From a virus: DNA of 64,000 bases. The DNA is taken from positions 32,001 through 96,000 of IMG/VR virus record IMGVR_UViG_3300036790_000425, one strand, 5' to 3'. Position numbers and translations under genes: made by a program. Positions 19,801 through 57,104 of this stretch are shown here, one piece after another (within the stretch, counting starts at the first letter, position 1; each line of letters opens with the position of its first letter). Under the pieces are notes generated by a model. It did no database searches and was not told the origin of the DNA. It saw nothing but the letters and a program-made list of their open reading frames with translations.

Positions 19801-19877
19801 TTGAACAGCACCGGGTCAAGCCCGCTGGTCGGCCCGAAAATGCCGCTGGACGGCAGGTACCGGGCTGCCTCGGTCAC
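16842..19877 (-). CDS. multidomain protein: Pol-beta-type nucleotidyltransferase, NUDIX hydrolase, 2H phosphoesterase and a C-terminal phage domain; the NUDIX part may also start independently at 18452
   Basis: YLAGGSAS..DLDIL; G.RGKDESPEDGALREFREEMG NUDIX box; PHITV and PHVTL; GTG 19877 overlaps the upstream stop. Confidence 0.75.
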   Translation of the reverse strand: MTEAARYLPSSGIFGPTSGLDPVLFNSRHELRPAVRHDIMERLDRALRVDGGLTGSEWQEYLKVYLAGGSASEWAGGRPNDAATDLDILIGVDYEAWNWNRAVGWPKKGDAAIDAALNDVLRRHFNDPDWHPDCGGHFDLTGYVNPGAWDIRRIKPYAAWDLSDSKWAVRPPHLPAHSAADFDPAILSQARAVATEARAILRQAEPARTRQARALWERLHAERRRAFSDEGDGWQDAGNLIEKWLSYSPDRILEKIRKLVFSEPGASGPGNVSPGNISGYGHQDLHSLPRDQAAGPGSFRLDSARQEGRTEGLLPGRVQEVPQHSAGRAHEAVPDRPDPEVVRHMRDGGHPRHVQGELLPAVRDDSPGCGSGPDDGAQGWQGQVRAQRLPEADLRHHHRGVRGDAGRPGRQVCDLPDRGRGFGSDQPVRGPQPRHGQEAQAAVRGMQLPSTESRGRSGAVRADGGLYPGTPRTGGMTGYNEIRPSAVRVASGSDGDRMVTCSKGHEHWGAYGAAGLLMRHKGEDGQVRYLLQKRSPAVDHPDTWSIPSGARGKDESPEDGALREFREEMGALPRGTSHRSTTVSTDCGDWKFHTVSYDSPELFTPRGRGETDHEIAGAGWFAPREVKHLDLHPAFAKSWDNVRKSASVRRDHSSAGGVSLDVQEQESTKLEPREGVAGYDVAPRSGMIYLPIPEGLIERVPGGVDDEPHITVVYLGKGLSDEAFGTAMQRAAEAGARSKPLHGVLRGTGTFPPSEASDGKTPVFVPAYVPGISQLRRELEDLSASEHQDYRPHVTLAYLEDGDPVPPSHPARQVSFTHLHVKRGDQVVRFPLGAGIRTEARSREPTSSFRDMHRIIDRTHRNGGHSVSLTSGRSPSGGYMVAQQEGSHFLPAHEFFGPQGHHVLRSYIQGHASHFAQPGAHLGTWHDHESGNVFLDISHNVHGLEGATRMAQHHNQIAIWDLKNKQEIPTGGTGGLDKVAAADSCERCGLPAAKVSATMEFLRRGGQDTLE
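18449..19039 (-). CDS. endonuclease VII-family (homing-type) nuclease nested in an alternate frame
   Basis: YGITIEEYEEML..QGGKCAIC..LCVDHNHVTG..R.LLC..CN; N-terminal CxxC fingers. Confidence 0.88.
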   Translation of the reverse strand: MDTKTCTRCHETKPQDQDHFDWTPPGKKAGPKGYFRGVCKKCRSTQQVERMKRYRTDQTPRWCATCGTEGTRATFRGSYCPPCATIHQAAAQARMMERKGGRARYVRNVYLKRTYGITIEEYEEMLAAQGGKCAICPIEAGASDRISLCVDHNHVTGKKRKLLCVGCNFRVRNLGDDPVLFELTVAYIREHLELVA

Positions 19878-22800
19878 GCCGTCAGCGCCTTGCGCTCGGG
19901 TTCGGTCCACGCACCTTCCGTGCTGCGCAGGATCTCTGCTGCCTCGTCCGCGGTGCCGGCCAGGTGACCGGACATCTGCCGCAGCAGGTCCGGCATGCTC
20001 TCCGCGAGCGGCAGGTGCTCGCACCTGGCCGCCAGCGTCCCCAGGGCGGCCGACACGATCCGCAGGGCGCCGGGTACCTCGTGCAGCATGGACACGACAT
20101 CCTCGGCGCTCTGGGGCTGGTAGGACGCGATCCGCATCGGCATGTCCCGCAGCGCCCGGGCGACCGACACCGGCTGCGCCTTCTCAGGCAGACTCGCCGC
20201 GGCGGCAGCCTCGTGCACCTGGTGGATGAAGCTGGCCGGCAGGGGCTCGCGCAGCGCGTGCACGGTGCCCTCCGTGGCCTCCCGTGGCTCGCTGAGGTAG
20301 CGCGAGACCTGGTCCCGGGGCACGTGGATCTCCACGACGCGCGGGCTCGTCCAGTCCCGCTGCCCGGCGATCAGGGCGGCGCCGTCCCGGCTGGTGGTCA
20401 CCGTGGGCTGGTCCGGGGACTGGGCCGGACGCAGGCCGCCGGACTGGATGCCGGCGGTGTCGTCGTGGTGCGCGCCGTGGTAAAGCACGTAGGGATCAGC
20501 GGGCTGACCCAGTGCGGCCTCATGATCGCCCCAGCCCTCGTCCTCCTCGTCATACCGGGACTCGATGTGCTCCGGGACCGGCATCTCGCGGTGCACGCCG
20601 AACCCGGTCCGGCTGCGCACGTCGCCTGGGTTCACCCGGCGCGAGTTTCCTCCCTCGTCATGAGTCGGGTCCTTCTCGACGTCGTCGGCATGCGGGGTGA
20701 CCTCGAAAACCCTGGGCCGGCCGCCGTGCGCCTCCGCCGCGCGCTCGGCGTAGTCCCAGGCGCTGCCCGGGTCCGCCGTGGCGAAAGCGTGCGTGCCGTC
20801 GTGATCCTGCGGGAAGTTCCGCCGCCCGCTGCCCTGCGGGGTGATCTGATCCGGATCGCCGCTGTCGTTCGTGCCGTGGTAGTAGGGTCCCCGGGCCGGC
20901 TCACCGCGCTTGCCCCGGTCCAGGGCATCCATGTCCCGGCGGAAATTGCGATCATGCTCGCCCTCGCTGGCGTCGAACATGCCGTAGCAGTGCTGGCACA
21001 CAGCCGGGCTCCGGCCGCCGCCCTCGCCGTGGTCACCCGGGCCAGGCGGCCGGAACCGGCGGCTGCCGCAGTCCGGGCAGGCGGCATCCTCGTGCGGGAC
21101 GGCCGGCTCCAGCGCGGCGGTGCGCTTCTGCTTCTCCAGGGCGCGCAGGCCCTTCCGGTAGGGCTCGTAGACGGAATCCGTCTCGTCGTTCACCCAGCTG
21201 TAGCTCTCCGGGCCGTTCCGGTCGTCGCGCATGTAGCGGGCGGAGCCGTGCCAGGGCTCGTGCACGGCCAGCATCTGCCGGGGGTGCACGTCACCGCGCA
21301 TGATCACGTGGTGGTGGCCCTCGCCCCACTCCCTCAGCTTGCCCTGGTCGTAGCTGCCGTCCTTATTGCGGGCATGCCAGGGTGACTCGGCGTTGCCGGA
21401 GATCTCATCCGGGTGGGCGTGGTACTCCACGACAGCCGCATGCCCTGAGTGATCATCCAGGATGTCGTCCGGGCGCTTAGTGGAGGCCCACACGCCGGCC
21501 GACGGGTCATCCAGGTTGTGGTCCCCGGCATCGCCCCGGGCGCGGCTGCGCTGGAGTCCGTGCTGCCGGATCGAGTCCACGTTGTCCAGCGGGGTGTAGT
21601 GCCAGAGCCGGACGCGCCCGGCCGGGATCTCGGCGGTGCCGGGATCGGCCGGCAGCTCATCTCGGCTGTGCAAGGCGCCCTCCTTCGGGATGCCGACGTC
21701 GGTATAGTTCACCGTGCCGTGCTGACCTGGCCGGTGGCTGACCGGGACGTGGCGGTCCACCGGATGCCACGTCCAGCCCGGCGGGTTGTGCTCGGGGTGC
21801 AGGGGGTGCACCGTGCCCTCCTTGCCGGGCTCGCCCACCCAGGCCCCCTCCACGTGCACCGAGGAGCCGGGGTGCAGCCGGACCTCCGCCTCCGACGGCA
21901 GCGACTCGTGCCTGCCGCGCCACATCGGGTGCGAGCGGGAGATGGCCTGGGACTCCGGGTGCTCCAGCCGGGACTGCCACACCACCGGCCGGGTGCTCGG
22001 GCCGCCCCGTTCGGGGCCGGTGATAACGCCCTCCGGCTTCGCGCTCCAGTGCATGCCGAGCGAGCGGGTGCCGGAGATGTCCTCGCCGGCCGGGCGGCGC
22101 TCGCCGCGCCACAGCCGCAGGCCCGGCTCGGGCCTGCTGGCCACGTCCAGCATCTTCCTGCTGTAATCCCGGTCATCGGCAGCCGCCAGGCCCTCGCGCT
22201 GGGAGTCGATCATCGGCGGCAGGTGGCTCAGGTCCGGCGGCCGGTGCGGGCTCAGGCCGCTGCCGGGGAAGTCCCGGGACAGGCCGCGCCCGTGCCGGTC
22301 GTTGGCTACCTGGATCTTGGCATCGGTGTAGTGACGGCGGGCCAGCGCCGCGGCGTCCTCATGCCCGGCACCGTCCAGGGCCAGGGCGTAGTGCCAGGTG
22401 AAGCCCCGGCCGTGGCGCCGCTCGTCCGGGTCCTTGTCGCTCGGCCGCGGGTGCCTGTCCCAGGACTCCCGGGGCCGGGCCTCCTCCAGCGCCTGCCGCT
22501 TATCGGTCATGACGTGCGCGGCATGATGAGCCAGCTCATGGATGCTGCCGTGCTCCGGGGCCACGGCGGAGTCGATGTCCTCGCGCGGCATGAAGAAGCT
22601 GGCCTGACCGAGCATCTTCCGCAGCGTGCCGGTGCGGTCCTCCGGAGCCTGGCCCAGGTGCGGGTGCTCCTGGCTGACTTTCGCCTCGACGGCGGCGTGC
22701 ACTGCGCGGTTGGGCTCGGCAGCGACGTGATCAGCCACAGCGGTGCGGCGGACCCGGGGGAGCGGGATCTGGCTGCGCGTGGCCGCGTACCCCTCCGCTG

Positions 22801-24628
22801 AGGCGTGCCACTTGTCGTCCGGGTGATAGTCGATCTCCAGGGTGTGACCGCGCACGCCCGTCTCGCCCTGGTGGCGCCAGCGCTCATCCGGGGCAGCCGA
22901 GGCCCGGGTGTAGCCGCCGCGTGACTGGAGGTACCCGTTGTGCTGGGCGTCATCCCATTCACCCGGATCAGCAACCCGGTAGAGCTTGCTGACCGGCTTG
23001 CCGCTCAGAGTCAGGCCGCCCTCCGGATGCTGCTCGATCCGGCCGCCGTATAGCTCCCCGGGCGAGGGGAGGATGCTCCCGGGCCGGGGCAGCGCAGGCC
23101 CTGAGAGCGCCCGGGAGAGACGCTCCTCGGACTCCCTCCTCTGGCTGTCGTCAGCGGCTGCTGCGACGTGCTCACCGCTCTCGGCCTCGAAGTGCGCCAC
23201 GACGGCCGCCTGATGCTCGCCGCTGACGAAGTGCTCCGGCTTCAGGTCCGAGGCGCGGACGGTGTAGAACTTCTCCGTGCCGCCGCCGAACGAGTCGTTC
23301 TCGGTGGCCAGGTGCCGGGGCACCCGGACATGCACGGCCTCCGGACCGTAGCCGCCGCCGTAGAAGCCGTGCGGGACGTCCGAGAAGAACACCGGGCCCT
23401 GCTTGCCGTGCTGGTCGATCATCCGGCGCTGGCTGCGGATCGCGGCGGCGTTCTCCGGCGTGGTGTGGTGGTACAGGTCCACCTGATCAGCGGCACCCTC
23501 GTGGCGCGTCGGCTCATCATCGTCGTCGCGGTGCATCTCCTGGCACTCCGGGCAGTTGCGGGGCTGGTCGCTCTCGCGCGAGGTGTCGGCCACCACGCCC
23601 TCCATCGAGGACTTGCCCGTCAGCCGGGCCCGGGCATACCGGTGGTGGCCGTCAAGCAGGTAGGTCCTGCCCTCATGGCGGACGAACCGGGCCGGCTCCT
23701 CGTCGTAGGGGCGCCCCGTCTCGTGCTCGTAGCGGTCCACGAGCTGCTTATCGTGCATCGTGTCGGCGTGCACGAAGGGCTGGTGAACGTGGATCTGCTG
23801 CCTCAGCGAGACGCGCTCAGGAGCCATGTGACGCCAGTGGTCCTCCTGCTGGTCCAGGTCGTCCGGCCAGCCGTGGTGCTCCAGCCGGGGGATCTCGTGC
23901 GGCTCGACGTGCGGGCCCCAGGAGTGCGGGAAGTGCACCACGCCGTTCTCGTCAGCGCGGCGGTTCACCCAGTCGCTGATCCGGTCCTCGCGGCGCTCCC
24001 GGGCGGCAGGGGAGGCAGTCTCGTAGCCAGCCCCGAAATGGTCCATGAGACCGCCGGTCACCTCGCGGATCACCCGGAGCGGGTGCTCGCTGTAGTGGCT
24101 CCGGGGATTCCACCGGTCCGGCTTGTGCTCGCCGGTCGGCTCGACCTCGAACACCCGGGCGTGCTCCGGCGGCCTGCCCTGCTCGCGCGCCGCCTGGCTG
24201 GCAACGTCCCGGGCCCAGCCCGGGCTCTCAGTGAAGAAGGTCTCCTCGCTCGGGCCCTCCCAGCCGCGGTCCAGGGCGCGGGGCATCCCCGTGGTCACCA
24301 TGTCGTCAGGCTGGAACGGGTGCGTGGTGCCGTGATAGAAACGCGGCCCGGTACCGGCCTCGAAATGCTCCAGGACGCCGGAGCGCCAGTGCTTGCGGCG
24401 GGGCTGGGGCTGGCCGGGGCAGTGCGGGTCGCGGGCGCCCTTATCGGTGGTGCCGGTGCCGCCGCAGCGCCCGCAGGACGAGCCGTCGCCGTGCTCGCCC
24501 GTGCCGCCGCAGCAGGAGCAGGACTCCTGGCCCCGGCCGGGGCGGGCGGCGGCGCTCATGCCCCTTACATTAGCAAGGTTTCCTGTAACAGGCGAGAGCG
24601 GAGCGAAGTGCGCCAGCAGCGGGTCCAT
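19874..24628 (-). CDS. 1584-aa polyvalent protein: about 7 ADP-ribosyltransferase-fold domains, ParB-like domain, HExxH zincin, Zn ribbons, C-terminal helical domain
   Basis: FYHGT..RVFEVEPTG, LYHHT, LYRV, LWRGE..WS..EAEV, LWHYT, YYHGT..RVFEV, LYHGA; LLDGHHR; HELAH; RBS AGGAGG. Confidence 0.8.
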   Translation of the reverse strand: MDPLLAHFAPLSPVTGNLANVRGMSAAARPGRGQESCSCCGGTGEHGDGSSCGRCGGTGTTDKGARDPHCPGQPQPRRKHWRSGVLEHFEAGTGPRFYHGTTHPFQPDDMVTTGMPRALDRGWEGPSEETFFTESPGWARDVASQAAREQGRPPEHARVFEVEPTGEHKPDRWNPRSHYSEHPLRVIREVTGGLMDHFGAGYETASPAARERREDRISDWVNRRADENGVVHFPHSWGPHVEPHEIPRLEHHGWPDDLDQQEDHWRHMAPERVSLRQQIHVHQPFVHADTMHDKQLVDRYEHETGRPYDEEPARFVRHEGRTYLLDGHHRYARARLTGKSSMEGVVADTSRESDQPRNCPECQEMHRDDDDEPTRHEGAADQVDLYHHTTPENAAAIRSQRRMIDQHGKQGPVFFSDVPHGFYGGGYGPEAVHVRVPRHLATENDSFGGGTEKFYTVRASDLKPEHFVSGEHQAAVVAHFEAESGEHVAAAADDSQRRESEERLSRALSGPALPRPGSILPSPGELYGGRIEQHPEGGLTLSGKPVSKLYRVADPGEWDDAQHNGYLQSRGGYTRASAAPDERWRHQGETGVRGHTLEIDYHPDDKWHASAEGYAATRSQIPLPRVRRTAVADHVAAEPNRAVHAAVEAKVSQEHPHLGQAPEDRTGTLRKMLGQASFFMPREDIDSAVAPEHGSIHELAHHAAHVMTDKRQALEEARPRESWDRHPRPSDKDPDERRHGRGFTWHYALALDGAGHEDAAALARRHYTDAKIQVANDRHGRGLSRDFPGSGLSPHRPPDLSHLPPMIDSQREGLAAADDRDYSRKMLDVASRPEPGLRLWRGERRPAGEDISGTRSLGMHWSAKPEGVITGPERGGPSTRPVVWQSRLEHPESQAISRSHPMWRGRHESLPSEAEVRLHPGSSVHVEGAWVGEPGKEGTVHPLHPEHNPPGWTWHPVDRHVPVSHRPGQHGTVNYTDVGIPKEGALHSRDELPADPGTAEIPAGRVRLWHYTPLDNVDSIRQHGLQRSRARGDAGDHNLDDPSAGVWASTKRPDDILDDHSGHAAVVEYHAHPDEISGNAESPWHARNKDGSYDQGKLREWGEGHHHVIMRGDVHPRQMLAVHEPWHGSARYMRDDRNGPESYSWVNDETDSVYEPYRKGLRALEKQKRTAALEPAVPHEDAACPDCGSRRFRPPGPGDHGEGGGRSPAVCQHCYGMFDASEGEHDRNFRRDMDALDRGKRGEPARGPYYHGTNDSGDPDQITPQGSGRRNFPQDHDGTHAFATADPGSAWDYAERAAEAHGGRPRVFEVTPHADDVEKDPTHDEGGNSRRVNPGDVRSRTGFGVHREMPVPEHIESRYDEEDEGWGDHEAALGQPADPYVLYHGAHHDDTAGIQSGGLRPAQSPDQPTVTTSRDGAALIAGQRDWTSPRVVEIHVPRDQVSRYLSEPREATEGTVHALREPLPASFIHQVHEAAAAASLPEKAQPVSVARALRDMPMRIASYQPQSAEDVVSMLHEVPGALRIVSAALGTLAARCEHLPLAESMPDLLRQMSGHLAGTADEAAEILRSTEGAWTEPERKALTA

Positions 24629-47891: not shown

Positions 47892-47920
47892 GAGGCCCCG
47901 GCAGGATCGCCGGGGCCTCT
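47891..47920 (-). terminator. hairpin after ArdC-like gene
   Basis: AGAGGCCCCGGC/GCCGGGGCCTCT. Confidence 0.65.
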
Positions 47921-47931
47921 CGGAGAGCTGG

Positions 47932-48870
47932 TCAGGCCGCGGCGTCCTCCGCGATCCCGGCACTGGCCGGGGCGATGCCGGCGGCCTGCGCGGGCATCCC
48001 GTCCACGATCTGGCGGGCGGCCTTCTGGATGCGCGAGCCGGACTCCCTGATCATCTTGCGGGCCTGCCCGGGGTCGCCGCGCATCCAGCTCAGCACGTAG
48101 CCGAAGCTGTAGTCCGAGGTGTCGGCGCCGAGCGCGGCAGCCGCGATGTAGGCAACCGACTCGGCCTCCAGCTCCTTCAGCCCGGCGGGAGCCTCGCTGC
48201 TCTCGTGCAGCAGGACGTGCCCGGCCTCGTGCAGCAGGGTCTTCAGCTGGCCCATCGTGGACCGGCCATCGGTGGCGATCCGGACCCGGCGCAGGCTCCA
48301 GGTCGTGTCGCCGTTCTTGGAACCGGACTCGAAGCGGTCCACGAACTCCACGTCATAGCCGGCCGAGTTAATGAAGGCGACCGCGCGGGCGATCATGCCC
48401 TCGGGCGCCTCGCCCGTCAGCTTGCGGACCGGCCCGGGCAGCGGCTCGCCCTCGGTCTGGCTGATGTCGAATACCGGCACCGGGACGAAGAACGGGATGC
48501 GCCGGGTCTCGCCGGTCTCCTCGTCCTCGACCTTGCGGGAGGACGGGGCCCAGATCCAGATCGCGCGCTGGCGCTGGCCGGTCTCGTCCGGGCCCTTGAC
48601 GTGGCGGCCCAGGAGCAGCCAGCCCGACTTCGGCTTGCCGGTGACCTTGTCGGTCGTGCCGAAGCTGGTGACCCGGGTGGCGTGCGGGCACTGGGCCATG
48701 ATCAGCATCGAGTTGCCGAAGCTGTAGGTGTGGAAGCGGGCCTGCACGTCCAGGTAGGCCTGCCAGGTCGCGGAGGTAGCCAGCGCGTCGATGCCGGCGG
48801 CCAGCTTCTCGGTGATCTCCGCGCGGTGGTCGGTCTTGGCGCGGGCGGGCTTGCGGGTCGTCTTGGTCAT
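47932..48870 (-). CDS. ArdC-like antirestriction protein (ssDNA-binding N-domain plus zincin), probably leaderless
   Basis: W..YL....FH.YSF.N.MLI..Q.P.AT.V; W...GR.V; F..V.VFDISQTEG; LLHEAGH; ELEAESVAY; YSFGY...W. Confidence 0.85.
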   Translation of the reverse strand: MTKTTRKPARAKTDHRAEITEKLAAGIDALATSATWQAYLDVQARFHTYSFGNSMLIMAQCPHATRVTSFGTTDKVTGKPKSGWLLLGRHVKGPDETGQRQRAIWIWAPSSRKVEDEETGETRRIPFFVPVPVFDISQTEGEPLPGPVRKLTGEAPEGMIARAVAFINSAGYDVEFVDRFESGSKNGDTTWSLRRVRIATDGRSTMGQLKTLLHEAGHVLLHESSEAPAGLKELEAESVAYIAAAALGADTSDYSFGYVLSWMRGDPGQARKMIRESGSRIQKAARQIVDGMPAQAAGIAPASAGIAEDAAA

Positions 48871-48876
48871 AAGGAC

Positions 48877-48905
48877 AGCTTAGCAAGGAAAGCTGTATTG
48901 AGCAA
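48877..48905 (-). promoter_or_regulatory. sigma70-type promoter with box
   Basis: TTGCTC-AATACAGCTTTCCTTGC-TAAGCT; 48862-48906 matches 47848-47892 at 43/45. Confidence 0.75.
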
Positions 48906-48913
48906 GTACCTGA

Positions 48914-48948
48914 GAGAGGCCCCCGGCGGCGGCTGCCGGGGGCCTCTC
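48914..48948 (-). terminator. hairpin after Spd-like operon
   Basis: 14-bp stem GAGAGGCCCCCGGC/GCCGGGGGCCTCTC. Confidence 0.65.
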
Positions 48949-48958
48949 CGCGGGACCT

Positions 48959-50866
48959 TTACTGATCGCTGACCGTGTCCCACAGATCCTCGCTGGGCCG
49001 CGGGTTCTCGATCCGTTCGATCTCCTCGGCATGCTCGGAGTTGAACATGGCCCTGATCTCCTCGGCCTGCTGCACGGCCGAGGTGAACAGCCCGGTGAAC
49101 TGCTCCATCGCCTGCTTGGTCCCCGGCCCGATCGGCAGGCCGTCGGCGCTGTCCTTCAGCCCGCTGAAGGCCGCGGCGACCTCAGTCATTGACTCCGGCA
49201 TGCCGTCGAAGATGTCCCGCATCTCGCGGGTCGTGGTCGGCTGGTGGGTGGCAACGGCCGAGCTGAACTGCTCGGCCGCCGAGTGGATGACTCCTGCCAT
49301 GCCTGCTCCTCCTCCTGAGAATGCTGCGGCCGTGCCCGGCCGGCGGCGGCCGGCGAGCGGGATGCTGCCCGGGACCGTGCCCGCGGGCTCCGGCATGCGG
49401 CCGTCCTCCGGGTCCGCCCGGGTAGTCACGGGGCGCTCGGGCGGCCTGGTCCAGTACGTAGGCGGCGCCTGCCTCGCGCGGCTCCGCTTCCTCCAGAATA
49501 GCAAGAAACCTGCCAGGCCCGCGCCTGTCGCGGCGGCGGTGCCCGTCCGGCCGCCCCAGGCGCGCATCCGGGCCCTCAGCGGGGTCCGGCCGCTCCACCG
49601 GCCGGCGATGCGCCGGGCCAGCGGCGGGACGCCGCCCGGGTAGCGCTTCGCCAGCCTCGCCACGCGCCGCGCCCGGAGCCTGCTCGTCTGGGCCCGGGAC
49701 TTCCGCCGGGTCCAGGCATAGCTGTCCCGGGTCTTGATGCACGTGATGGTGCGCCACTTCCGGGCATGCCGCCACCTGCCCCCGGCTGCTGCCCTCCGGG
49801 CGTTATTAGCGGTCTTGCGGCCCTGGGCCGCCGCTACCCGGGCGTCCTTGCGCCGCTGGCGCGAGGCGTGCCTGTAGTCCCTGCGGCCCTGCCGCCCGCC
49901 GCCCTTTCCTGCCTTCCGGTTGTGCCGTGCCAGGCGGGCCGCCTGAGCGCGCTGGCGGCCGGCGGCGGTGGGGTGGCGCAGGAACCGGCCCGCGGCACGG
50001 GTGCGCCGGAGCCTCGGCGCGCCGCCGAGCGCGCCTGGCGCGGCGGCGGCAGCGGCACGGCGCGCGGTCCGGGCGGCGCGGCCCTGCGCCTTCTGGCTGC
50101 GCCGGTACTGGCGCCGCTGGCCCGGGTGGCGCATGCCCGGCCGCCCGCCGGGGAAGCCTGGCGCAGAGGTGCCGCGCCGGCCGAAGACACTGCGCCTGCC
50201 GGTCTTCGCGCCAGCGCCCGTGCCACTGCGCCGGCGGCCGGCCTGGCCCGTGGCGCGCCGTCCCGTGCCGGCTGTCCCGGCACGGCTGCGCCGGCCTCCG
50301 CCGAGCGGGTGGCGCATGGTGCGCTTGCCGCGGGCGCCGGCTCCGCCGGGGACGGAGTGACGGCCGCGCCGGGCGCCTGCCCCGGCGGCGGCGCTGCCCT
50401 TGCGGCCGGAGAACGGGTTGAGCCGGGCCAGGCCCTTCCTGCCCGCGGCGGCGGTCCCGGCGCCCTTCCTGCCGCCGGCCGCGGCGCTCAGGCGGCCCTT
50501 ACGGCCGCCCAGTCCCGCTCCGCCCCGGCCGCTGCCGAGACGGCCGCGCATGGCGCCGCCCAGCCGGCCGCGCTGCCCGCGGGTGATGGTCCGGGTCGTC
50601 CGGGTACGCCGCATCCCCGGCTTGCGCCGGTTGGCGTTGAAGTGCTGCCGGATATGCGGCAGGTAGCGGAGCACCAGGAAGCCGGCGAACAGGGCGGCAG
50701 CCGCGACGATGATGATGATCGCCGTGCCGCCGCCTGCCTTGTGAACCAGGGCGGCGACCCCGGCGACGATGAGCAGCAGGACGGTCCCGCCGCGGCGCCA
50801 CATGTGCGACCGCGGGCGGGATTCCGCCTGCTGGGCGGGGACTGTTTCCTCAGCCAACTGGGACAC
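48959..50866 (-). CDS. two-TM, Arg/Gly-rich protein with C-terminal ~113-aa helical domain (own RBS/ATG at 49300); plasmid transfer-region-like
   Basis: N-terminal TM pair; very basic low-complexity middle; C-terminal H.E.I.RIENPR..E..WD; AGGAGGAGGAG before 49300. Confidence 0.6.
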   Translation of the reverse strand: MSQLAEETVPAQQAESRPRSHMWRRGGTVLLLIVAGVAALVHKAGGGTAIIIIVAAAALFAGFLVLRYLPHIRQHFNANRRKPGMRRTRTTRTITRGQRGRLGGAMRGRLGSGRGGAGLGGRKGRLSAAAGGRKGAGTAAAGRKGLARLNPFSGRKGSAAAGAGARRGRHSVPGGAGARGKRTMRHPLGGGRRSRAGTAGTGRRATGQAGRRRSGTGAGAKTGRRSVFGRRGTSAPGFPGGRPGMRHPGQRRQYRRSQKAQGRAARTARRAAAAAAPGALGGAPRLRRTRAAGRFLRHPTAAGRQRAQAARLARHNRKAGKGGGRQGRRDYRHASRQRRKDARVAAAQGRKTANNARRAAAGGRWRHARKWRTITCIKTRDSYAWTRRKSRAQTSRLRARRVARLAKRYPGGVPPLARRIAGRWSGRTPLRARMRAWGGRTGTAAATGAGLAGFLLFWRKRSRARQAPPTYWTRPPERPVTTRADPEDGRMPEPAGTVPGSIPLAGRRRPGTAAAFSGGGAGMAGVIHSAAEQFSSAVATHQPTTTREMRDIFDGMPESMTEVAAAFSGLKDSADGLPIGPGTKQAMEQFTGLFTSAVQQAEEIRAMFNSEHAEEIERIENPRPSEDLWDTVSDQ

Positions 50867-51989
50867 CTCCGGGGATGAAGGGCTGAGCAGGGGCGATCAG
50901 GTCGCCCTGCCCGTTCGCGTGCCGGGCCGGCGGCAGCGGCCGGAGGCGCTGGGCTCGCTCGGCTCGCTCGGCGTTCAGCAGCCTCGTGCCCCAGCGCCGC
51001 TGATCGGACTCCTCGGGCGGGGCGATCATGCGGGCGACCTGGCGGTAGGTCGTGGCCGCCAGGTCAGTGTCGGACAGGCCGGCCAGCTGATCGGCCACCT
51101 CGCGCCGGCGCTCGGCGCTGACCCCGGCGGGGACCCGGGCATCGGCGCTCAGCTCAGCCGCCGCGCTGTGCACGGCGGGCACCAGGCTCAGGCGGCCTGG
51201 CGCGGCGTCCTCGTGCGCCATCGCTGGCACGTCCTCGTGCGCCATCGCTGGCGCGGCTGGCGCGGCTGGCGCGGCTGGCGCGCTCTCGATCGCTGGCACG
51301 TCCTCGCGCGCCACCACCTCCGGCACGGATGGCGCGGGCAGTGATGGCGCGGGGATGGCGCGGCGCGGCGCGTCCTCCTGGCGCGGGGGCTTGATCACGG
51401 CCGGGCCCTCGGTCATGTAGTCGCTGATGGCACGCTGCGGGCTGGTCTCGCCGTACCAGGTGGCGCGGCGCATCACCCGGAACGAGCCGACCGGGTGCCA
51501 GGCCACGCGGGTGGCTCCGAGCCGGACAGCGTGCTTCTCGATCAGGCCCTGGGCCATCAGCTTGTCGCGGCTGACCCGGCGCGAGTGCACCGACCACAGC
51601 CACGGCGAGATCGAGGACATCAGGCCGAAGATCAGCGCGGCCACGGTCGGCCGCCAGTGACTCGCGAAGTGGCTGTAGTTCATGGCGCCGACGATCAGGG
51701 CCAGCGCGTAGGACGACAGCCGCAGCCGGGCGGTCGAGTCGTTCTTCAGCTGCGCCTCGTGCGCCTGGTAGGCCAGCACGACGGCAATCAGCTCCAGGAT
51801 GACCGCCACCAGGATGACCGACCAGCGCGGCACCGGCAGGTGATCCCGCAGGTAGGCGTACTGACCGATGAAGGCCGCGATGTTCACGCCCACGATCGGG
51901 ACAGCGGTCAGGACAGCGCTCACACCATGCCGGAAGCGGTCACTCCTGATCACTTCCAGGACCTCGGCAGACCCGTCACGCATCGTCAT
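50850..51989 (-). CDS. DUF2637/Spd-like 4-TM membrane protein
   Basis: four TM helices, MNYSH, Pro/Ala linker, C-terminal helical part; RBS GAGGAGGAG. Confidence 0.65.
   Translation of the reverse strand: MTMRDGSAEVLEVIRSDRFRHGVSAVLTAVPIVGVNIAAFIGQYAYLRDHLPVPRWSVILVAVILELIAVVLAYQAHEAQLKNDSTARLRLSSYALALIVGAMNYSHFASHWRPTVAALIFGLMSSISPWLWSVHSRRVSRDKLMAQGLIEKHAVRLGATRVAWHPVGSFRVMRRATWYGETSPQRAISDYMTEGPAVIKPPRQEDAPRRAIPAPSLPAPSVPEVVAREDVPAIESAPAAPAAPAAPAMAHEDVPAMAHEDAAPGRLSLVPAVHSAAAELSADARVPAGVSAERRREVADQLAGLSDTDLAATTYRQVARMIAPPEESDQRRWGTRLLNAERAERAQRLRPLPPARHANGQGDLIAPAQPFIPGGVPVG
51206..51313. repeat. intragenic tandem repeats (24-bp x2 plus a variant, 9-bp x4)
   Basis: CGTCCTCGTGCGCCATCGCTGGC twice; GCTGGCGCG four times. 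Confidence 0.7.
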
Positions 51990-52019
51990 CTCCTCCTCGC
52001 AGTTGTCCTCAGCACATCC

Positions 52020-52048
52020 ACATTATCAAGAAAACCTGTAATCGTCGA
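52020..52048 (-). promoter_or_regulatory. promoter with box driving the Spd-like operon
   Basis: TCGACG-ATTACAGGTTTTCTTGA-TAATGT. Confidence 0.65.
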
Positions 52049-52049
52049 G

Positions 52050-52302
52050 GATCACACCTGCGGAACCCCGGTTTCCGGGGGTCAGGGACCCGCTTCGATC
52101 ACAGTCACAGTTCCTGACCTGCCCGTCCTCGAAACTGTGATCGAGTAGTGATCCGGCAGACCGTGACTGTGACTTAGCGGGGTTCCTTGCCAGGGTCAGG
52201 GGCCCCGGATCACAGCGATCTTTGTTTAGACACGGACACGATCGGTGATCACTAGCAATGAAACTGATATTTTCGACGTTATCCATAACAATGACTGATC
52301 AC
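52050..52302. repeat. cluster of GATCAC/GTGATC/GTGACT repeats upstream of traB
   Basis: copies at 52050, 52097, 52137, 52148, 52163, 52169, 52208, 52245, 52297; 11-bp inverted repeat 52095-52105/52134-52144. Confidence 0.6.
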
Positions 52303-52319
52303 TACCGGAGGAGCCGCAG

Positions 52320-54281
52320 GTGAGTGCCCCGACGACCAAGACCTGGGAGCACGTCGCGGAGTGGACAGCGCTGCTCAGCGCTGCCGTGCTCACCGCCGTG
52401 GCTTACCTGCCCGGCATGGGCGCGCCCGCGTGGTGCGTCCCGGTGCTGTCCGCGGTGCTCGGCCTGATCGCGGCGGGCGTGGCCGCTGCCGTGGCCGGCG
52501 GGAGGTTCGCCGCCTGGTGCGCCGCCTACGGCGCATGGTGCGCCGCCTGGAGCTACTGGGCCGGCACGCGCGGCCTGTGGCACCCTGTTGTCGTGATCGC
52601 CTGGATCCTGGGGGCCGTCGCCTTCGTCGCGGCCGGCGCGCTCCTCCTGGCACACCGCCGGCCGGCGCAGCTGGCCATCGAGGCCGCGCCGGACCCCGAG
52701 GAGGCCAGCCGCCTGGAGGTCCTGGCGCAGTGGGACCACCTGTTCGCCTCGGTGGACTGCGAGGGCGTCCGGACGGTCGAGGTCATCGACGACAAGGCCA
52801 CGCCGGGCCGGGTGATCCGGGCCGAGCTGCCGCGCAAGGGGCACCTGACCATCCGCAGCCTGGAGACCCAGGCGCACCGGATGGAGGTCGCGCTGCGGCT
52901 GCGGGAGAACAGCATCACCTTCGCCACCCTGGCGAACGCCGCGGACATCGAGCTGCGGCTGCGGGAGCGGGACCTCATGACCAAGGCCGTCCCGCTGACC
53001 CCGGCGCACTACGCCACCACCATCAACAAGCCGTTCGCCGTCGGCGTGGGCGAGGACGGCAAGATCAAGTCGCTGACCCTGCGCCAGGTCCACATGATGC
53101 TGGTCGGCACGACCGGCGCGGGCAAGTCGAACCTGATCAACGTCCTGACCGGGCAGATGGGCCGGATGGTGGACACCGTCATCTGGTGCATCGACATGAA
53201 GGGCGGCCGGGTCGCCCGGCCGTGGCTCCTGCCGTGGATGAACAACGAGACCGATCAGCCGGTCTTCGACTGGGTGGCTACCAGCCGGAAGGAGGCCGCG
53301 CTGATGATGGACTGCTTCGTGATGGCCATCACCAGCCGGATGAACTCCGGCCGGGGCGGGTCGAAGATCACCCCGAAGGCCAATATCCCGCAGATCATCC
53401 TGCTGGTGGACGAGGCGGCCGACCTGATCGGCCAGGACAAGGGCCCGACCCTGGCCGAGGCCGAGCGGCTCGGCGTGCTGACCAACCGGCAGTTCGCCAA
53501 GCGCTTCGGAGAGATCACCCAGAAGGGGCGGTCCGAGGCTGCCTCCGCAGTGATCGCCACCCAGCGGGGCACCAACAGCATGTCCGGTGACGGCGACATC
53601 AAGGGTCAGTGCAAGACCCGGATCCTGCTGGGCACGGTCAACGAGAATGAGGCCCGCTACGTGCTGAACGACGACCCGCAGGCCTGGCGGCTGGCCACGA
53701 TGGCCTCCGCCATCCCGGGTGCCGGGGTCATCGGCGTCGGCCGGGACACCTCGCTGCTGGTCAAGTTCTTCCTGCTGGACCACCCGGAGGTGCCGGGCAC
53801 CGAAACCGGCGAGACGCTGTGTGATGACGGCTGCGTGCCGGAGTGCGCGGTCCGGATGACCGCGATCGAGACCGGCCGGGTCCGCCCGGCGCTGGACCAG
53901 GAGACCGCCGCCAGCATGGGCGAGACCTACGCCGACCGGTGGGCCCGGGCCCGGGACGCTGGCGTCATCACCCGGGTGCCTGCCCGGCGCCAGGTGGCCG
54001 CGGTCAGCACCGCCGGGTTCGAGCAGATCATGTCCGACTCGGGGATGACCGACCCGGACCAGGACGTGGACCCGCGGCGGCTGCGGATGCGCGAGCTGCT
54101 GGCCTCCCGGGGGCCGGCAGGCGGCACACCCAACTTCCTGTGGACCAAGATGGCGGAGGAGGGCATCACCGTGGCCCGGGAGACCCTGTCCCGGTGGCTG
54201 CGCGCCGACGCCGACCGCGGCCTGTGCCACTCGGCTGATGAGCATGGCCGCTGGCGGATCGGCCAGAAGCCGGCCGCCTAG
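52320..54281 (+). CDS. traB: TraB-like FtsK/SpoIIIE DNA translocase
   Basis: four N-terminal TM helices, GTTGAGKS, IDMKGG, LLVDEAA, GRS, ATQR, C-terminal wHTH-like V.RETLSRWL; RBS GGAGGAG. Confidence 0.8.
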   Translation: MSAPTTKTWEHVAEWTALLSAAVLTAVAYLPGMGAPAWCVPVLSAVLGLIAAGVAAAVAGGRFAAWCAAYGAWCAAWSYWAGTRGLWHPVVVIAWILGAVAFVAAGALLLAHRRPAQLAIEAAPDPEEASRLEVLAQWDHLFASVDCEGVRTVEVIDDKATPGRVIRAELPRKGHLTIRSLETQAHRMEVALRLRENSITFATLANAADIELRLRERDLMTKAVPLTPAHYATTINKPFAVGVGEDGKIKSLTLRQVHMMLVGTTGAGKSNLINVLTGQMGRMVDTVIWCIDMKGGRVARPWLLPWMNNETDQPVFDWVATSRKEAALMMDCFVMAITSRMNSGRGGSKITPKANIPQIILLVDEAADLIGQDKGPTLAEAERLGVLTNRQFAKRFGEITQKGRSEAASAVIATQRGTNSMSGDGDIKGQCKTRILLGTVNENEARYVLNDDPQAWRLATMASAIPGAGVIGVGRDTSLLVKFFLLDHPEVPGTETGETLCDDGCVPECAVRMTAIETGRVRPALDQETAASMGETYADRWARARDAGVITRVPARRQVAAVSTAGFEQIMSDSGMTDPDQDVDPRRLRMRELLASRGPAGGTPNFLWTKMAEEGITVARETLSRWLRADADRGLCHSADEHGRWRIGQKPAA

Positions 54282-55012
54282 CCTGCCGCGGCGGGGGCCT
54301 CGGCCGGGGCGATCTCGGGCGGGGCCTCCACTGCTGCTACCGAGGGAGTCGCGGGCAGCGGCGGCTGGCCCGCGGCCGAGAGCGTCTGCTCCACGTCCGC
54401 GCCCAGCGTGCCGCGGTCGGCGTCGGCGCTCAGGATCTTCCCGGTGGTGTCGTGGTACTGCTGCATCCGGCGCCGGGCCTCCCCGAGCCGGCCCTCCATG
54501 TCCTGGAGCCGCTGCGCGGCGCCCTCGCTGACCGCCGCGGAGTGCGCGGCGGCCTGGTCGGTCATCCGCTTGGCCTCCGCCCGCGCGCCCTCCAGGGCGA
54601 TCTCGGCCTGCTCCCGTGCCCCGGCCGCGACCTTGTCGGCCTCCTCGCGGGCGTCGGCCAGGAGCTGGCGGGCGGCGTCCTCCGCGTCTGATCTCAGCTG
54701 CGCCGCGGACTGGTCGGCCTCGGCCTTCTGGCCGGCCAGCTCCTCGGCCGCCATCCTCATCAGGTCGGCCACCAGCCTGGTCGCCTGCGGAGACTCGGCC
54801 GCCTTCGCCAGGGTCTGCTCGGCGTCGTGGCCGAAGTGAGCCACCTGCCGCTCGGCGTCGTGCAGGCGTGTCAGGATCCGGGCGATCCAGGAGTCCACCT
54901 GCTTCGGGTGATAGCCGCCGGCCCCCTGGACCTGGTCGAACCGGGGATCCAGGTCGGGGTCGGCAGCCGGGCCGAGGTCGGTCACCGGGTACTGCTGGGT
55001 GTCGCTGGTCAT
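54278..55012 (-). CDS. DivIVA-domain coiled-coil protein
   Basis: RF......GY...QVD.WI..I followed by A..EA....A heptad repeats. Confidence 0.75.
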   Translation of the reverse strand: MTSDTQQYPVTDLGPAADPDLDPRFDQVQGAGGYHPKQVDSWIARILTRLHDAERQVAHFGHDAEQTLAKAAESPQATRLVADLMRMAAEELAGQKAEADQSAAQLRSDAEDAARQLLADAREEADKVAAGAREQAEIALEGARAEAKRMTDQAAAHSAAVSEGAAQRLQDMEGRLGEARRRMQQYHDTTGKILSADADRGTLGADVEQTLSAAGQPPLPATPSVAAVEAPPEIAPAEAPAAAG

Positions 55013-55034: not shown

Positions 55035-55217
55035 TCAGGTGTCGTAGACCCCGTCAGCCACGGCCGGGACCTGAACCCAGGAGGACGTGGCGATCGGGCC
55101 CGTAACGCCCGTGCCTGGCAGAACGGTACCCGGCGCGACGGTGATGCGCTGGGACATCGCCGTGGCCGCCAGAACCGCCCGGGCCGCCAGGGCCGCGCTC
55201 CCGCTCACCGTGGCCAT
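55035..55217 (-). CDS. small hypothetical (tail region)
   Basis: TGATG coupling. Confidence 0.55.
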   Translation of the reverse strand: MATVSGSAALAARAVLAATAMSQRITVAPGTVLPGTGVTGPIATSSWVQVPAVADGVYDT

Positions 55218-55495
55218 CAGGCCCCCATCAGGCTCCCGGCCGCGATCTGGGACGCGGTGAGCGTGTAGGTCGTGTCGGTGAAGCCCTGGTCGGTCCCGTC
55301 AGCCAGCTGGCACTCGTACTGGTTGCCCGGGTCCCGGGTGGCGTCAGCCGCGTCCGAGAGCACCACGGCGCCGGTCCCCGGCACCCAGCCCTCCCAGGTA
55401 GCCGGATCCCCGACCACGGTGAAGGCCGAGCCGCCGGTCAGCTGATCAGCTGAGGTCTCCACCGGGTAGGTCAGCGTGGTCACGTCCTCCGCCAT
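55217..55495 (-). CDS. acidic hypothetical (tail region)
   Basis: 92-aa ORF. Confidence 0.6.
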   Translation of the reverse strand: MAEDVTTLTYPVETSADQLTGGSAFTVVGDPATWEGWVPGTGAVVLSDAADATRDPGNQYECQLADGTDQGFTDTTYTLTASQIAAGSLMGA

Positions 55496-55496
55496 C

Positions 55497-55889
55497 TCAG
55501 GCCGCCAGCGTGAGCGATCCCGAGGCGATGGTGAAGGTGTCGCCCGAGTTCGTGGTCTTGGCCGCGGTGAGCGCGCCCCACCAGGTGCGGATAGGCGAGC
55601 CGGCCGAGTCCCACAGCTCTACGCCGTTGATCGTGGTCGCCGGCATGTTGGTCACCGTGACCGCGACATTGGAGGCCTTCGAGCCGGCCGAGGCCGCAGC
55701 GAAGGTGACCGTCGGGGCGCCCGTGCCGGAGGTGTACCCGCCGCCGGTCGCCAGCTCGGTGCCGTTGCTGGTATTGCTGCCGTTGGCCGTCATCAGCCGG
55801 CAGGTGATGGGCGTGGTCGGTGAGGTAAGCGTGCCGCCGACGCTGGCGTCCAGCAGCTTGTTCGAGAACGTCTGGTCGAGGCTAGACAC
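55497..55889 (-). CDS. small tail-fibre/virion structural protein
   Basis: GTE..GGGY..VTF.AA..G..SN, WD, WGAL...KT...GDTF.I..G.L. Confidence 0.7.
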   Translation of the reverse strand: MSSLDQTFSNKLLDASVGGTLTSPTTPITCRLMTANGSNTSNGTELATGGGYTSGTGAPTVTFAAASAGSKASNVAVTVTNMPATTINGVELWDSAGSPIRTWWGALTAAKTTNSGDTFTIASGSLTLAA

Positions 55890-56085
55890 TGGTCGGGCTC
55901 CCGTTCAGGATGGTGAGGCAGCTTCCGTCGGGGCACCCTGCCTGAGCGCAGCACCTGAAGTGGCGGCTGATCATCTCCAGGCCCTGGTCCGCGGGGACCA
56001 CGATCTGGTGGTGACCTTCGGTATCCACCTCATGACAGCCTTCGCACTCGCGCTCCACCCGCGCCGGGGCCTGCGGGTCGCTCAT
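55882..56085 (-). CDS. small Cys/His protein
   Basis: RBS AGGAGG; CxxC..D..H...H..C....CPDG.C. Confidence 0.65.
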   Translation of the reverse strand: MSDPQAPARVERECEGCHEVDTEGHHQIVVPADQGLEMISRHFRCCAQAGCPDGSCLTILNGSPTSV

Positions 56086-56114
56086 GGGCACCTCCTGATC
56101 CTTCTGGGGTTGGG

Positions 56115-57104
56115 TTACCAGGTGCGGAACACGGCAGAGGCGCCGACTGCCGCCCGGGTGTCGGTCCGCTTGACGTCCACCGCGGTGACGGCGGACCAGC
56201 CGTGCGCCGGCACGACGTGCACGGCCTTGCCCGTGGTGAGTGCGCGGGCAAGGGTCTGGGGTCCGTGCTTGACGTCGTGCAGCGTGACGTGCACGACCGC
56301 GCCGGTCTGGCCGGCCAGGCCCAGGGAGCAGCTCGCGTAGGCGGCCGGCTCCTTGTACTCGGCCGCGTCGGCCCACACCGGGAAGCTGACCGGGGGCTGT
56401 CCCGGCACCAGCGGAATGATCATTTCGTCTCCCTGGGCAGTCGGCTTCGGCTGGGCGGCGGCCGGGAGGACCCGGGCCGCGAGCTGGGCCTCAGTGCCGT
56501 GGAAGGCAGAGCAGTCCACGGGTCCGGAGATCCCGCTGATCGAGGCCTTGTCGGTGAACTGGAGCAGTACCGGGGTCCGGCCGCCGTAGGGTGCCCACCA
56601 GGACGCCGGGACGTGGCCGTACAGGGCCGCGGGGTCGCCGCCGCCGGACACGTAGGAGCTGGCCCACAGCCAGTCCGCGAAGGTCAGCGACTGGCCGCCC
56701 GTGTACCAGTGCGGGGCGTAGCCGCCGACGGGGTGCCGGGGGTACAGCTTCCGCAGCTCGGCCACGGCGTCGGCGGCCTGGGCGTGCGTCGGGCTGCCGT
56801 CGGGGGCCCGCTCGTAGTCCACGGCGATGCCGAACCGGGACAGGTCCCCGGCGTGCTCGGCGAAGAACGAGGCCTGCGCGGAGCCGCTGCCCTTAGCGTC
56901 CAGGAACAGGTAGGCCAGCGGCACGAACCCGTGCCCGGCGATCCGCAGCATGGCCGTCCTGGAGGCCGCCCAGCGGGGGTTGACGTAGCCCGTGCCCTCG
57001 GTGACCTTCTCCGCGCCGAATCGGCAGCTGGCGCTCACGCGGGCCCAGTCGGGGCTGCCCTGGAAGGACGAGCAGTCCGGCCCGTAGATAACTTTCCCGG
57101 TCAC
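56115..57104 (-). CDS. GH25 muramidase endolysin
   Basis: GPDCSSFQG..DW, K.TEG..Y.NP, AY.F, VDYE, LW...Y, LQFT..G..G.VD. Confidence 0.85.
   Translation of the reverse strand: MTGKVIYGPDCSSFQGSPDWARVSASCRFGAEKVTEGTGYVNPRWAASRTAMLRIAGHGFVPLAYLFLDAKGSGSAQASFFAEHAGDLSRFGIAVDYERAPDGSPTHAQAADAVAELRKLYPRHPVGGYAPHWYTGGQSLTFADWLWASSYVSGGGDPAALYGHVPASWWAPYGGRTPVLLQFTDKASISGISGPVDCSAFHGTEAQLAARVLPAAAQPKPTAQGDEMIIPLVPGQPPVSFPVWADAAEYKEPAAYASCSLGLAGQTGAVVHVTLHDVKHGPQTLARALTTGKAVHVVPAHGWSAVTAVDVKRTDTRAAVGASAVFRTW

Follow-up and report, generated by a model that had tools for sequence, protein, structure and literature searches.

A predicted membrane-anchored double-stranded DNA (dsDNA) translocase of the TraB/FtsK family, two membrane proteins and a DivIVA-domain protein are encoded together in the virus genome IMGVR_UViG_3300036790_000425, at positions 48959-55012 of the stretch analysed here (the window; 64,000 nt, bases 32001-96000 of the genome). 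This module is a fixed part of a lineage of ~160-kb contractile-tailed actinophages and is driven by promoters of the phage's own type. Seven other viral contigs of 159-166 kb and one 98.6-kb fragment carry the same gene set (ATPase, DUF2637 membrane protein, basic membrane protein, DivIVA-domain protein and a small acidic protein) in the same order and in the same syntenic place, between replication genes and the lysin.

The assemblies of these relatives come from different samples and pipelines (IMG/VR, an NCBI metagenome-assembled genome or MAG, ENA). Because the same module occupies the same place in independent assemblies from different sources, it is neither a chimera nor a recent island. 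The idea that a segment of a plasmid or an actinomycete integrative and conjugative element was mis-joined to a phage, or was recently inserted into one, has nothing but the unusual gene content to recommend it, and its probability is close to nil: besides the shared locus in eight independent assemblies, the promoter box and terminator hairpin of the module are phage-wide, G+C content is uniform (~70% over the whole window) with no composition break at the module, no integrase was found in the genome, and the phage copies of the ATPase form a clade of their own at 38-58% identity, as expected after long co-evolution with phages. An initial annotation, made from the sequence alone, had already argued on the strength of the promoter and hairpin that the module is not a foreign island, and the comparison with relatives sustains it. 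A DNA-level search of the module against phages gave no match.

The genome is that of a real contractile-tailed phage. It measures 162,435 bp (CheckV completeness 100%) and encodes a tail sheath (phrog_2839, E 7e-45), Baseplate_J, tail-fibre and virion proteins, a prohead protease domain, a cement protein, endonuclease VII and a GH25 lysin, in keeping with the tail and lysin genes noted initially, as well as a phage-borne replication set of Pol III alpha, RecA, Prim-Pol/D5 and a 5'-3' exonuclease. The cultured phages closest to it in the tail sheath, with only 26-32% identity, are myoviruses of Mycobacterium (cluster C), Gordonia and Rhodococcus. A search of the 162-kb genome with four Pfam families (PF00589, PF00239, PF02195 and PF01656) gave zero matches, that is, no gene for a tyrosine integrase, a serine recombinase (resolvase), ParB or ParA/CbiA. 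Since virion genes are present while integrase and partition genes were not found, we regard this as a virulent-looking phage and drop the term phage-plasmid, which the initial annotation had offered as an option. The settings in which this pump family occurs suggest a filamentous, high-G+C actinomycete as host. The two ends of the genome (1-100 and 162336-162435) overlap, with ~70 nt of identical sequence after a run of CCGCCT hexamer repeats at either end; this makes circular permutation or terminal redundancy probable, although the IMG/VR label is 'linear'.

Genes were called by the G+C content of third codon positions (GC3), which gave the same calls as the initial annotation, with all four genes of the module where that annotation had drawn them. 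The ATPase gene (52320-54281, + strand; 653 amino acids or aa, GC3 0.96) is separated by a 330-bp divergent control region (51990-52319; 54% GC versus about 70% elsewhere) from an operon on the opposite strand, in which the gene for the DUF2637 integral membrane protein (50850-51989, - strand; 379 aa) comes first and overlaps by 17 nt the gene for a basic protein with two transmembrane (TM) segments (48959-50866, - strand; 635 aa). The gene for the DivIVA-domain coiled-coil protein (54278-55012, - strand; 244 aa) is convergent with the ATPase gene, the 3' ends of the two overlapping by 4 nt.

Assignment of the ATPase was based on profiles, an AlphaFold2 (AF2) model and a tree. Its Walker A (GTTGAGKS) and Walker B (LLVDEAADL) motifs are invariant among 30 homologues. 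The AF2 model (predicted local distance difference test, pLDDT, 86) has four TM helices at residues 5-111, backed by hydropathy segments, then an alpha/beta domain (126-214) and a RecA-type motor (239-483); the family originally named thus stands, and the single TM anchor named with it is replaced by four helices. The C-terminus (567-647) is modelled as three helices and a beta-hairpin at a pLDDT of about 90, which fits the winged helix-turn-helix (wHTH)-like domain suggested earlier; the sequence match to a wHTH protein is very weak (Fur, E 0.45). This winged-helix-like domain is more conserved than the motor. The best NCBIfam family is plasmid_TraB (NF041214; 36.9 bits, E 1.6e-9), collinear over residues 10-452, and the FtsK/SpoIIIE-like phrog_31069 matches residues 15-546 (E 1.7e-28). 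Searched against the PDB, a profile built from the 30 homologues picks up the FtsK motor (E 2.5e-7). In Foldseek, the structures ranked highest are those of TcpA (pCW3's coupling protein, of FtsK type) and of FtsK motors (E 1e-17 to 1e-14; TM-score 0.6-0.68, normalised to target); EccC and HerA are clearly weaker.

The tree was a quick maximum-likelihood search over 44 sequences, which did not include the classical Tra proteins of pSVH1, pIJ101 and SCP2 and in which pCQ3 TraB sits on a long branch; it places E. coli FtsK and the related MAGs' own FtsKs on one side, and pCQ3 TraB, pZL12.71c, Hiyaa gp102, plasmid 'FtsK-like' proteins and the chromosomal-pair and phage sequences on the other, with a Shimodaira-Hasegawa-like approximate likelihood ratio test (SH-aLRT) value of 100 for the split. 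The tree therefore puts the phage ATPase on the TraB side and away from chromosomal FtsK, as the initial annotation would have it; a grouping with other FtsK/HerA families, which would have refuted that annotation, is not what it shows. The group nearest to the phage clade consists of chromosomal two-gene units, inside which the ATPase of the 86-kb viral contig L015 is nested. The 32 homologues found at 33-58% identity are all metagenomic.

The divergent operon that the initial annotation described was found, and both of its genes are genuine. The DUF2637 protein matches PF10935 with 25.5 bits (cut-off 22.8), residues 28-176 aligning to positions 3-151 of the 161 in the profile, and has 3-4 TM segments and a Pro/Ala-rich cytoplasmic tail. 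With this protein and the DivIVA-domain protein as queries, tblastn against the phage and plasmid collections gave no matches, and profiles were needed to find the DUF2637 relatives. The basic protein (132 K+R among 635 residues, 15% Gly) has an N-terminal TM pair, a ~430-aa Arg/Gly/Ala-rich middle part that looks disordered, and a C-terminal domain that we call the partner domain. Its open reading frame (ORF) is split in public automated gene calls for relatives, yet we consider the 635-aa ORF real because in-frame GC3 is near 0.9 from end to end and an uninterrupted ORF of the same layout is conserved in two of the ~160-kb relatives (L014 and L012). The label 'Spd-like', which had been given to the membrane proteins, rests on position and topology and should be understood in that qualified sense.

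The partner domain takes up the last ~115 residues of the basic protein (about 114 aa; 48962-49321, - strand), has the conserved end ENPRPxE(D/E)LWD (in another rendering, ENPRPxEELWDV), and is modelled as a three-helix bundle with a pLDDT of 87. None of 61 diverse members matched any Pfam family, and searches of the PDB by sequence and fold returned no significant match, only generic helical bundles. The domain is encoded directly upstream of a TraB-like gene in 27 of 32 loci from bacterial genomes, and likewise in L015, in Hiyaa (gp101, the domain alone) and in the pZL12-like plasmid CP108377; in pFRL3, CP117710 and pZL12.72c it stands upstream of the pump as a tandem pair. An exhaustive profile search gave 1,161 representative clusters, 538 of them at E <= 1e-10, with the domain standing alone, C-terminal or duplicated. 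Judged by these profiles and gene neighbourhoods, it is an unnamed but regular companion of TraB-type pumps in plasmids, phages and chromosomes. An analogy to EccC-EsxB was rejected, WXG100/Esx hairpins appearing only at E above 1, as was identity with the 'plasmid transfer protein TraA' of pCQ3, which is unrelated (hhalign probability 2.7%). A predicted complex of ATPase residues 120-653 with the partner domain, run without controls, scored 0.00, which counts neither for nor against binding.

The convergent gene also proved to be what had been proposed: its product scores 31.4 bits against the DivIVA family PF05103 (cut-off 28) over residues 31-130. It does not reach the level of Wag31/DivIVA orthology (NCBIfam NF050102; 28.8 bits versus 260), and no PHROG or cultured-phage protein matches it.

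Expression of the operon appears tied to a promoter class that recurs in the phage. An 18-nt core, TTAGCAAGAAAnCCTGTA, occurs in 26 copies at <=3 mismatches in the 162-kb genome, versus 0-1 in 20 shuffles. Almost all copies are intergenic, 10-46 nt upstream of gene starts. They show a concentration in the non-structural arms and, together with GC-rich hairpins, form terminator-promoter cassettes. In TTGC..-N17-TA...T promoters of either orientation, the boxes make up the spacer (TTGCAC-N17-TAATGT in one reading; TTGCTC-N17-TAAGCT, or an extended -10 TGnTAAnnT, in the other). In the window, copies lie at 1167, 2284, 5007, 6175, 15626, 45691, 46180, 47866, 48880 and 52023. The last of these is the module's own (52023-52040, - strand; variant TTATCAAG); it lies 34 nt upstream of the DUF2637 start and on the minus strand reads as an extended -10 (TGATAATGT), and the same variant is at the same place in L012 and L014. 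The phage-wide boxed promoter previously drawn at 52020-52048 is hence phage-wide in its 18-nt core, while the exact 29-mer is unique in the genome. Further boxes precede the neighbouring gene for an ArdC-like protein (48880) and the neighbours of that gene. Right after its last stop codon the operon has a GC-rich hairpin with a 15-bp stem (48916-48950, - strand; -41.6 kcal/mol, z -4.6), and the resemblance once noted to the hairpin after ArdC (47892-47923; -33.9 kcal/mol, z -4.3) is confirmed by a stem arm common to both, GAGAGGCCCCGG; a box comes next after each.

The control region 51990-52319 also holds a repeat cluster. GATCAC occurs there eight times, versus 84 times in the other 63.7 kb; GATCACA occurs four times (eight in the whole genome) and CTGTGATC three times (four in total), accompanied by an element, GATCACAGTCACA, that is conserved in relatives. 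GATCACA-type repeats in this place, together with GATCACAGTCACA and the box variant TTATCAAG, are found in six of eight relatives whose proteins are only 40-50% identical. Two relatives have divergent repeats upstream of the pump gene, CGCACCAG five times in L022 (5472-6000) and GCGCGCCA seven times in L025 (5494-6000), and these two also have a changed recognition helix (PARETLHKWL and GVRESVHRWL, versus (V/I)ARET(L/I/V)(S/Q)RWL elsewhere); repeats and helix co-vary once, which amounts to a single evolutionary event. The GATCACA cluster could be a loading site for the pump, comparable to the clt repeats of plasmids. A cluster of four copies of GTGACAGT directly downstream of the L015 pump gene weakly supports that reading, and repeat searches around the chromosomal pairs stayed mostly at chance level.

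Outside this lineage, members of the family are found in several kinds of phage, in large Streptomyces plasmids and in Actinomycetota chromosomes. The phage carriers comprise, besides the ~160-kb myoviruses, a 131-kb contig, the 86-kb L015, Hiyaa-like phages and pZL12-like phage-plasmids, which have terminase and capsid genes beside kilB and GntR genes. A three-part module is common to pZL12 (71c-73c), the large Streptomyces plasmid pFRL3 (in the order DUF2637, partner-domain protein, 'FtsK'), CP108377, Hiyaa and L015 (GntR, GntR, DUF2637, partner-domain protein, pump). Chromosomes have a two-gene unit, a 114-aa partner followed by an ATPase with TM segments, FtsK-like motor and wHTH, in Streptosporangiaceae and other Actinomycetota MAGs (L029-L057; for example L036:7204-9509 and L034:7175-9419), the stop and start codons often overlapping. 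There is one strong copy per genome, and the copy in G005 is broken into three frames. These units are the closest non-phage relatives of both the ATPase (32-41% identity) and the partner domain; they differ from the phage module in that the partner is alone, without TM or basic region, and in that no DUF2637 or DivIVA gene is nearby. As far as we could see, the chromosomal pump and partner pair is undescribed. The earlier description of a Streptomyces-plasmid-type transfer module is accordingly right as to homology with plasmid loci, but a purely plasmid-type reading is weakened by these chromosomal relatives. Where the host is a spore-forming Bacillus, myoviruses of ~155-165 kb (Bcp1, BM15, Deep Blue and others) also commonly carry FtsK/SpoIIIE-like genes, which suggests a wider link of such pumps with septated or sporulating hosts.

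The nearest known system of this kind is pZL12 (phiZL12; GQ919031), reportedly a Streptomyces plasmid-phage capable of conjugal transfer. Like the phage studied here, it encodes virions and also a TraB-like translocase (71c; 22.5% identity, E 4e-13, searched in a small database); just upstream, 72c contains the partner domain twice (E 1.2e-17) and is preceded by a membrane protein, 73c. It differs in being a 90-kb circular plasmid prophage with ParA/ParB and with GntR beside the module, whereas the phage of this study, contractile-tailed and 162 kb in length, has a divergent membrane operon and an added DivIVA gene, and has no partition or integrase genes that we could find. Transfer of pZL12 requires the tra gene together with two genes adjacent to it (PMC3583192), the latter presumably being the counterparts of the module partners. 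Among cultured phages, Streptomyces phage Hiyaa has gp98 (DUF2637-like, E 3e-16 to the profile), gp101 (the partner domain, E 6e-16) and gp102 (a translocase, 24% identity); Hiyaa, its relatives Keanu, Galactica and Spocter, and Thermobifida phage P1312 (ORF63) differ in genome size (60-83 kb) and virion type and lack the DivIVA gene. Annotations of such genes in cultured phages stop at 'DNA translocase' or 'membrane protein', and the one role put forward is 'DNA segregation' (PMC4569894).

In the TraB-Spd apparatus of Streptomyces plasmids, TraB is an FtsK-like hexameric pump that binds 8-bp clt repeats and moves unprocessed dsDNA between mycelia (PMC4447253; Vogelmann et al. 2011 therein), and plasmid spread over septal cross-walls is then brought about by Spd membrane proteins (Thoma et al. 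2015, PMC4447253). Phage homologues of SpdB2 (phiC31, VWB) were proposed to spread phage DNA (Thoma et al. 2015, PMC4447253). With the apparatus of pSVH1, pIJ101 and pJV1 the present module shares a single FtsK-like pump that is membrane-anchored, and accessory membrane proteins in operons with overlapping stop and start codons; the C-terminal domain of the pump is a candidate for DNA recognition, and the short repeats clustered near its gene are candidates for a clt counterpart. SpdB2, an oligomeric membrane protein with four TM segments, binds dsDNA and forms pores; compared by topology, the DUF2637 protein, with its 3-4 TM segments and cytoplasmic tail, is broadly similar.

All three components of the module being homologous to plasmid transfer loci, we infer, as to substrate, direction and biological effect, that phages of this lineage may pump their own dsDNA across the septum or wall into a neighbouring compartment and so spread in the mycelium without virions, a reading to which we give somewhat less than an even chance. 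In an infected filamentous host, the pump would assemble into a membrane-bound ring, either at a septal cross-wall or at the lateral wall, where the winged helix might load it on the GATCACA/GTCACAG repeats beside its own gene, in the manner of clt. Replicated phage dsDNA would then be pumped into the adjacent hyphal compartment, passing through or alongside a channel of the DUF2637 and basic proteins, with the DivIVA-like protein perhaps placing the complex at septa or tips. Infection would thereby spread within the mycelium in the absence of virions, analogous to the intramycelial spreading of plasmids. A wider version of this idea is doubtful: strictly lytic giant actinophages would have made a 'movement module' out of a conjugation-type pump, equipped with a loading site of its own, a pair of membrane partners and a localiser of DivIVA type, so that one adsorption could reach many compartments with no need of virions, and the partner domain would be the missing universal adaptor of TraB-type pumps in plasmids, phages and chromosomes. 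If true, this would make the movement module a bacterial counterpart of plant-virus cell-to-cell movement.

A number of observations weigh against DNA transfer as the function. In sequence the ATPase resembles the named TraB equivalog very little, lying far below the plasmid_TraB cut-off (36.9 versus 800 bits), and Pfam FtsK_SpoIIIE (PF01580) gives 17.5 bits against a cut-off of 24, for the P-loop region alone. A GntR-type repressor of the TraR/KorA kil-kor sort is not adjacent to the module in the window, although one is adjacent in L015, pZL12 and CP108377. Conjugation of pZL12 is no direct model, because the present phage lacks integrase and partition genes. The repeats sit in a divergent promoter region and could equally be operators. 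In the DivIVA-domain protein the GY..VD..I motif is present, but by eye the exposed hydrophobic/basic loop residues are Gly-Ala-Gly, so that the residues of the N-terminal membrane-binding loop do not look conserved, and the association with DivIVA, in place in all eight ~160-kb relatives, is confined to this phage lineage. The mycelial habit of the host is itself something we infer. Finally, the chromosomal units have housekeeping neighbours (Ppx/GppA, nitroreductase, enoyl-CoA hydratase, HxlR, GGDEF-EAL), and neither DUF2637 nor mobile-element genes were seen among their immediate neighbours and the 25 commonest Pfam families of their flanks; small islands could still surround these units, the 30-kb flanks not having been scanned for integrases. 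Because the nearest non-phage relatives are chromosomal units in such surroundings, the ancestral or cellular role of this pump sub-family may not be plasmid transfer.

Those same surroundings are what a cell-cycle function would predict, and they lend some weight to the alternative that phage DNA is pumped through septa, whether of sporulation or of vegetative growth, as they close, and comes to lie in prespores or sealed compartments, for persistence and not for spread, much as phage DNA is trapped in Bacillus forespores in a SpoIIIE-dependent way. A DivIVA-type partner would suit a septum or pole function, and many myoviruses whose Bacillus hosts form spores have FtsK/SpoIIIE-like genes (22 of 36 phage records). 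We nevertheless consider such compartment loading unlikely: the ATPase is on the plasmid TraB side of the tree and not with the hosts' FtsK, the three-part module is that of plasmid transfer loci, and a phage that looks virulent and uses early-type promoters would destroy the hypha before it could sporulate. A similarly low probability attaches to host takeover or exclusion, in which the DivIVA-like protein would poison or re-route polar growth while the pump and membrane proteins block the entry of plasmid or phage DNA or expel foreign DNA. Fruitloop gp52 does target DivIVA and exclude other phages (PMC9262239), unregulated traB is toxic to Streptomyces (PMC4447253), the PHROGs category of these FtsK-like families is 'moron, auxiliary metabolic gene and host takeover', and the adjacent ArdC-like gene is a putative counter-defence gene. 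But the whole three-part module is kept and not merely a toxic fragment, and the intact catalytic motifs, a winged helix at least as conserved as the motor and the conserved cis-repeat cluster speak for sequence-directed translocation of the phage's own DNA.

It is quite improbable that the pump serves to handle the genome inside one cell, by aiding entry of the 162-kb DNA or by separating and positioning replicating DNA at the membrane. The genome is large, the module shares its box promoters with the replication-side, non-structural genes, and the repeats near the pump gene could act as an orientation signal. However, the cultured myovirus groups nearest by tail sheath (cluster C, Gordonia, Rhodococcus), which are of similar size, are absent among the phage-collection matches to FtsK-like proteins, and the module also occurs in plasmids and in 60-130-kb phages of other virion types, hence has no tie to one entry or packaging machine.

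Filamentous actinomycetes are compartmented, and the spread of phage infection through their mycelium is poorly understood; a literature search on how phages might pass the cross-walls of Streptomyces yielded no relevant work. For plasmids of Streptomyces the same compartment problem is solved by one FtsK-like pump and Spd proteins, which is why it matters that a whole module of this kind is fixed in large phages, under their own promoter type and with a conserved repeat cluster, in genomes devoid of plasmid or lysogeny functions. Both the gene combination and the idea of virion-free spread already have precedents, in pZL12 and in the SpdB2 homologues of phiC31 and VWB. What appears to be new is that the backbone is a 162-kb myovirus lineage of virulent appearance, without plasmid or lysogeny functions; that the genes are arranged divergently and use the phage's own class of promoter; that a DivIVA gene specific to the lineage goes with them; that the partner domain is recognised as a general pump companion, including pZL12.72c; and that chromosomes have two-gene relatives. 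Of wider use may be the three-helix domain that travels with TraB-type pumps, and the chromosomal pump-plus-partner pair of Streptosporangiaceae-type genomes.

Next to the DivIVA gene, in all relatives as here, is the gene for the small acidic protein (55217-55495, - strand; 92 aa, 13 D+E and 1 K+R). Beyond it, a 276-aa ORF (window 55510-56340, + strand) is 60-69% identical to relatives by tblastn; the genes called there in the relatives are on the minus strand (55497-56376), one of them Gp80-like (PF23140), so that the ORF of one strand is a shadow. We excluded the plus-strand ORF from the module, as it may be the shadow of the minus-strand genes. In L012 and L013, two of the relatives, the interval between the DivIVA gene and the lysin holds a Tad2-like gene (PF11195; L012:13111-13380) and a gene for a 322-aa protein with multiple helix-turn-helix domains (L012:13396-14364), both missing from the phage of the window.

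On the other side of the module lies the gene for the ArdC-like protein (47932-48870, - strand), which has its own box promoter (48880-48897) and hairpin and adjoins the module also in L021 and L024. Its ArdcN domain (PF08401) scores 21.2 bits, just under the cut-off of 22.6, and it has an M78-like domain (Peptidase_M78, 17.7 bits) and a match to the anti-restriction protein phrog_7245 (E 7e-6).

Elsewhere in the genome, a 1584-aa protein (window 19874-24628, - strand) has an Arr-ms domain, like that of rifampin ADP-ribosyltransferase, and a weak VapB-like match. A flavohaemoglobin-like gene with Globin, FAD_binding_6 and NAD_binding_1 domains (genome 121886-123301, L007:5886-7301, + strand) lies amid a block of tail and structural genes, on the opposite strand to them. 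An RtcB-type RNA ligase (phrog_1075, E 7e-126) is encoded at genome positions 135890-137074 (L018:890-2074, - strand).

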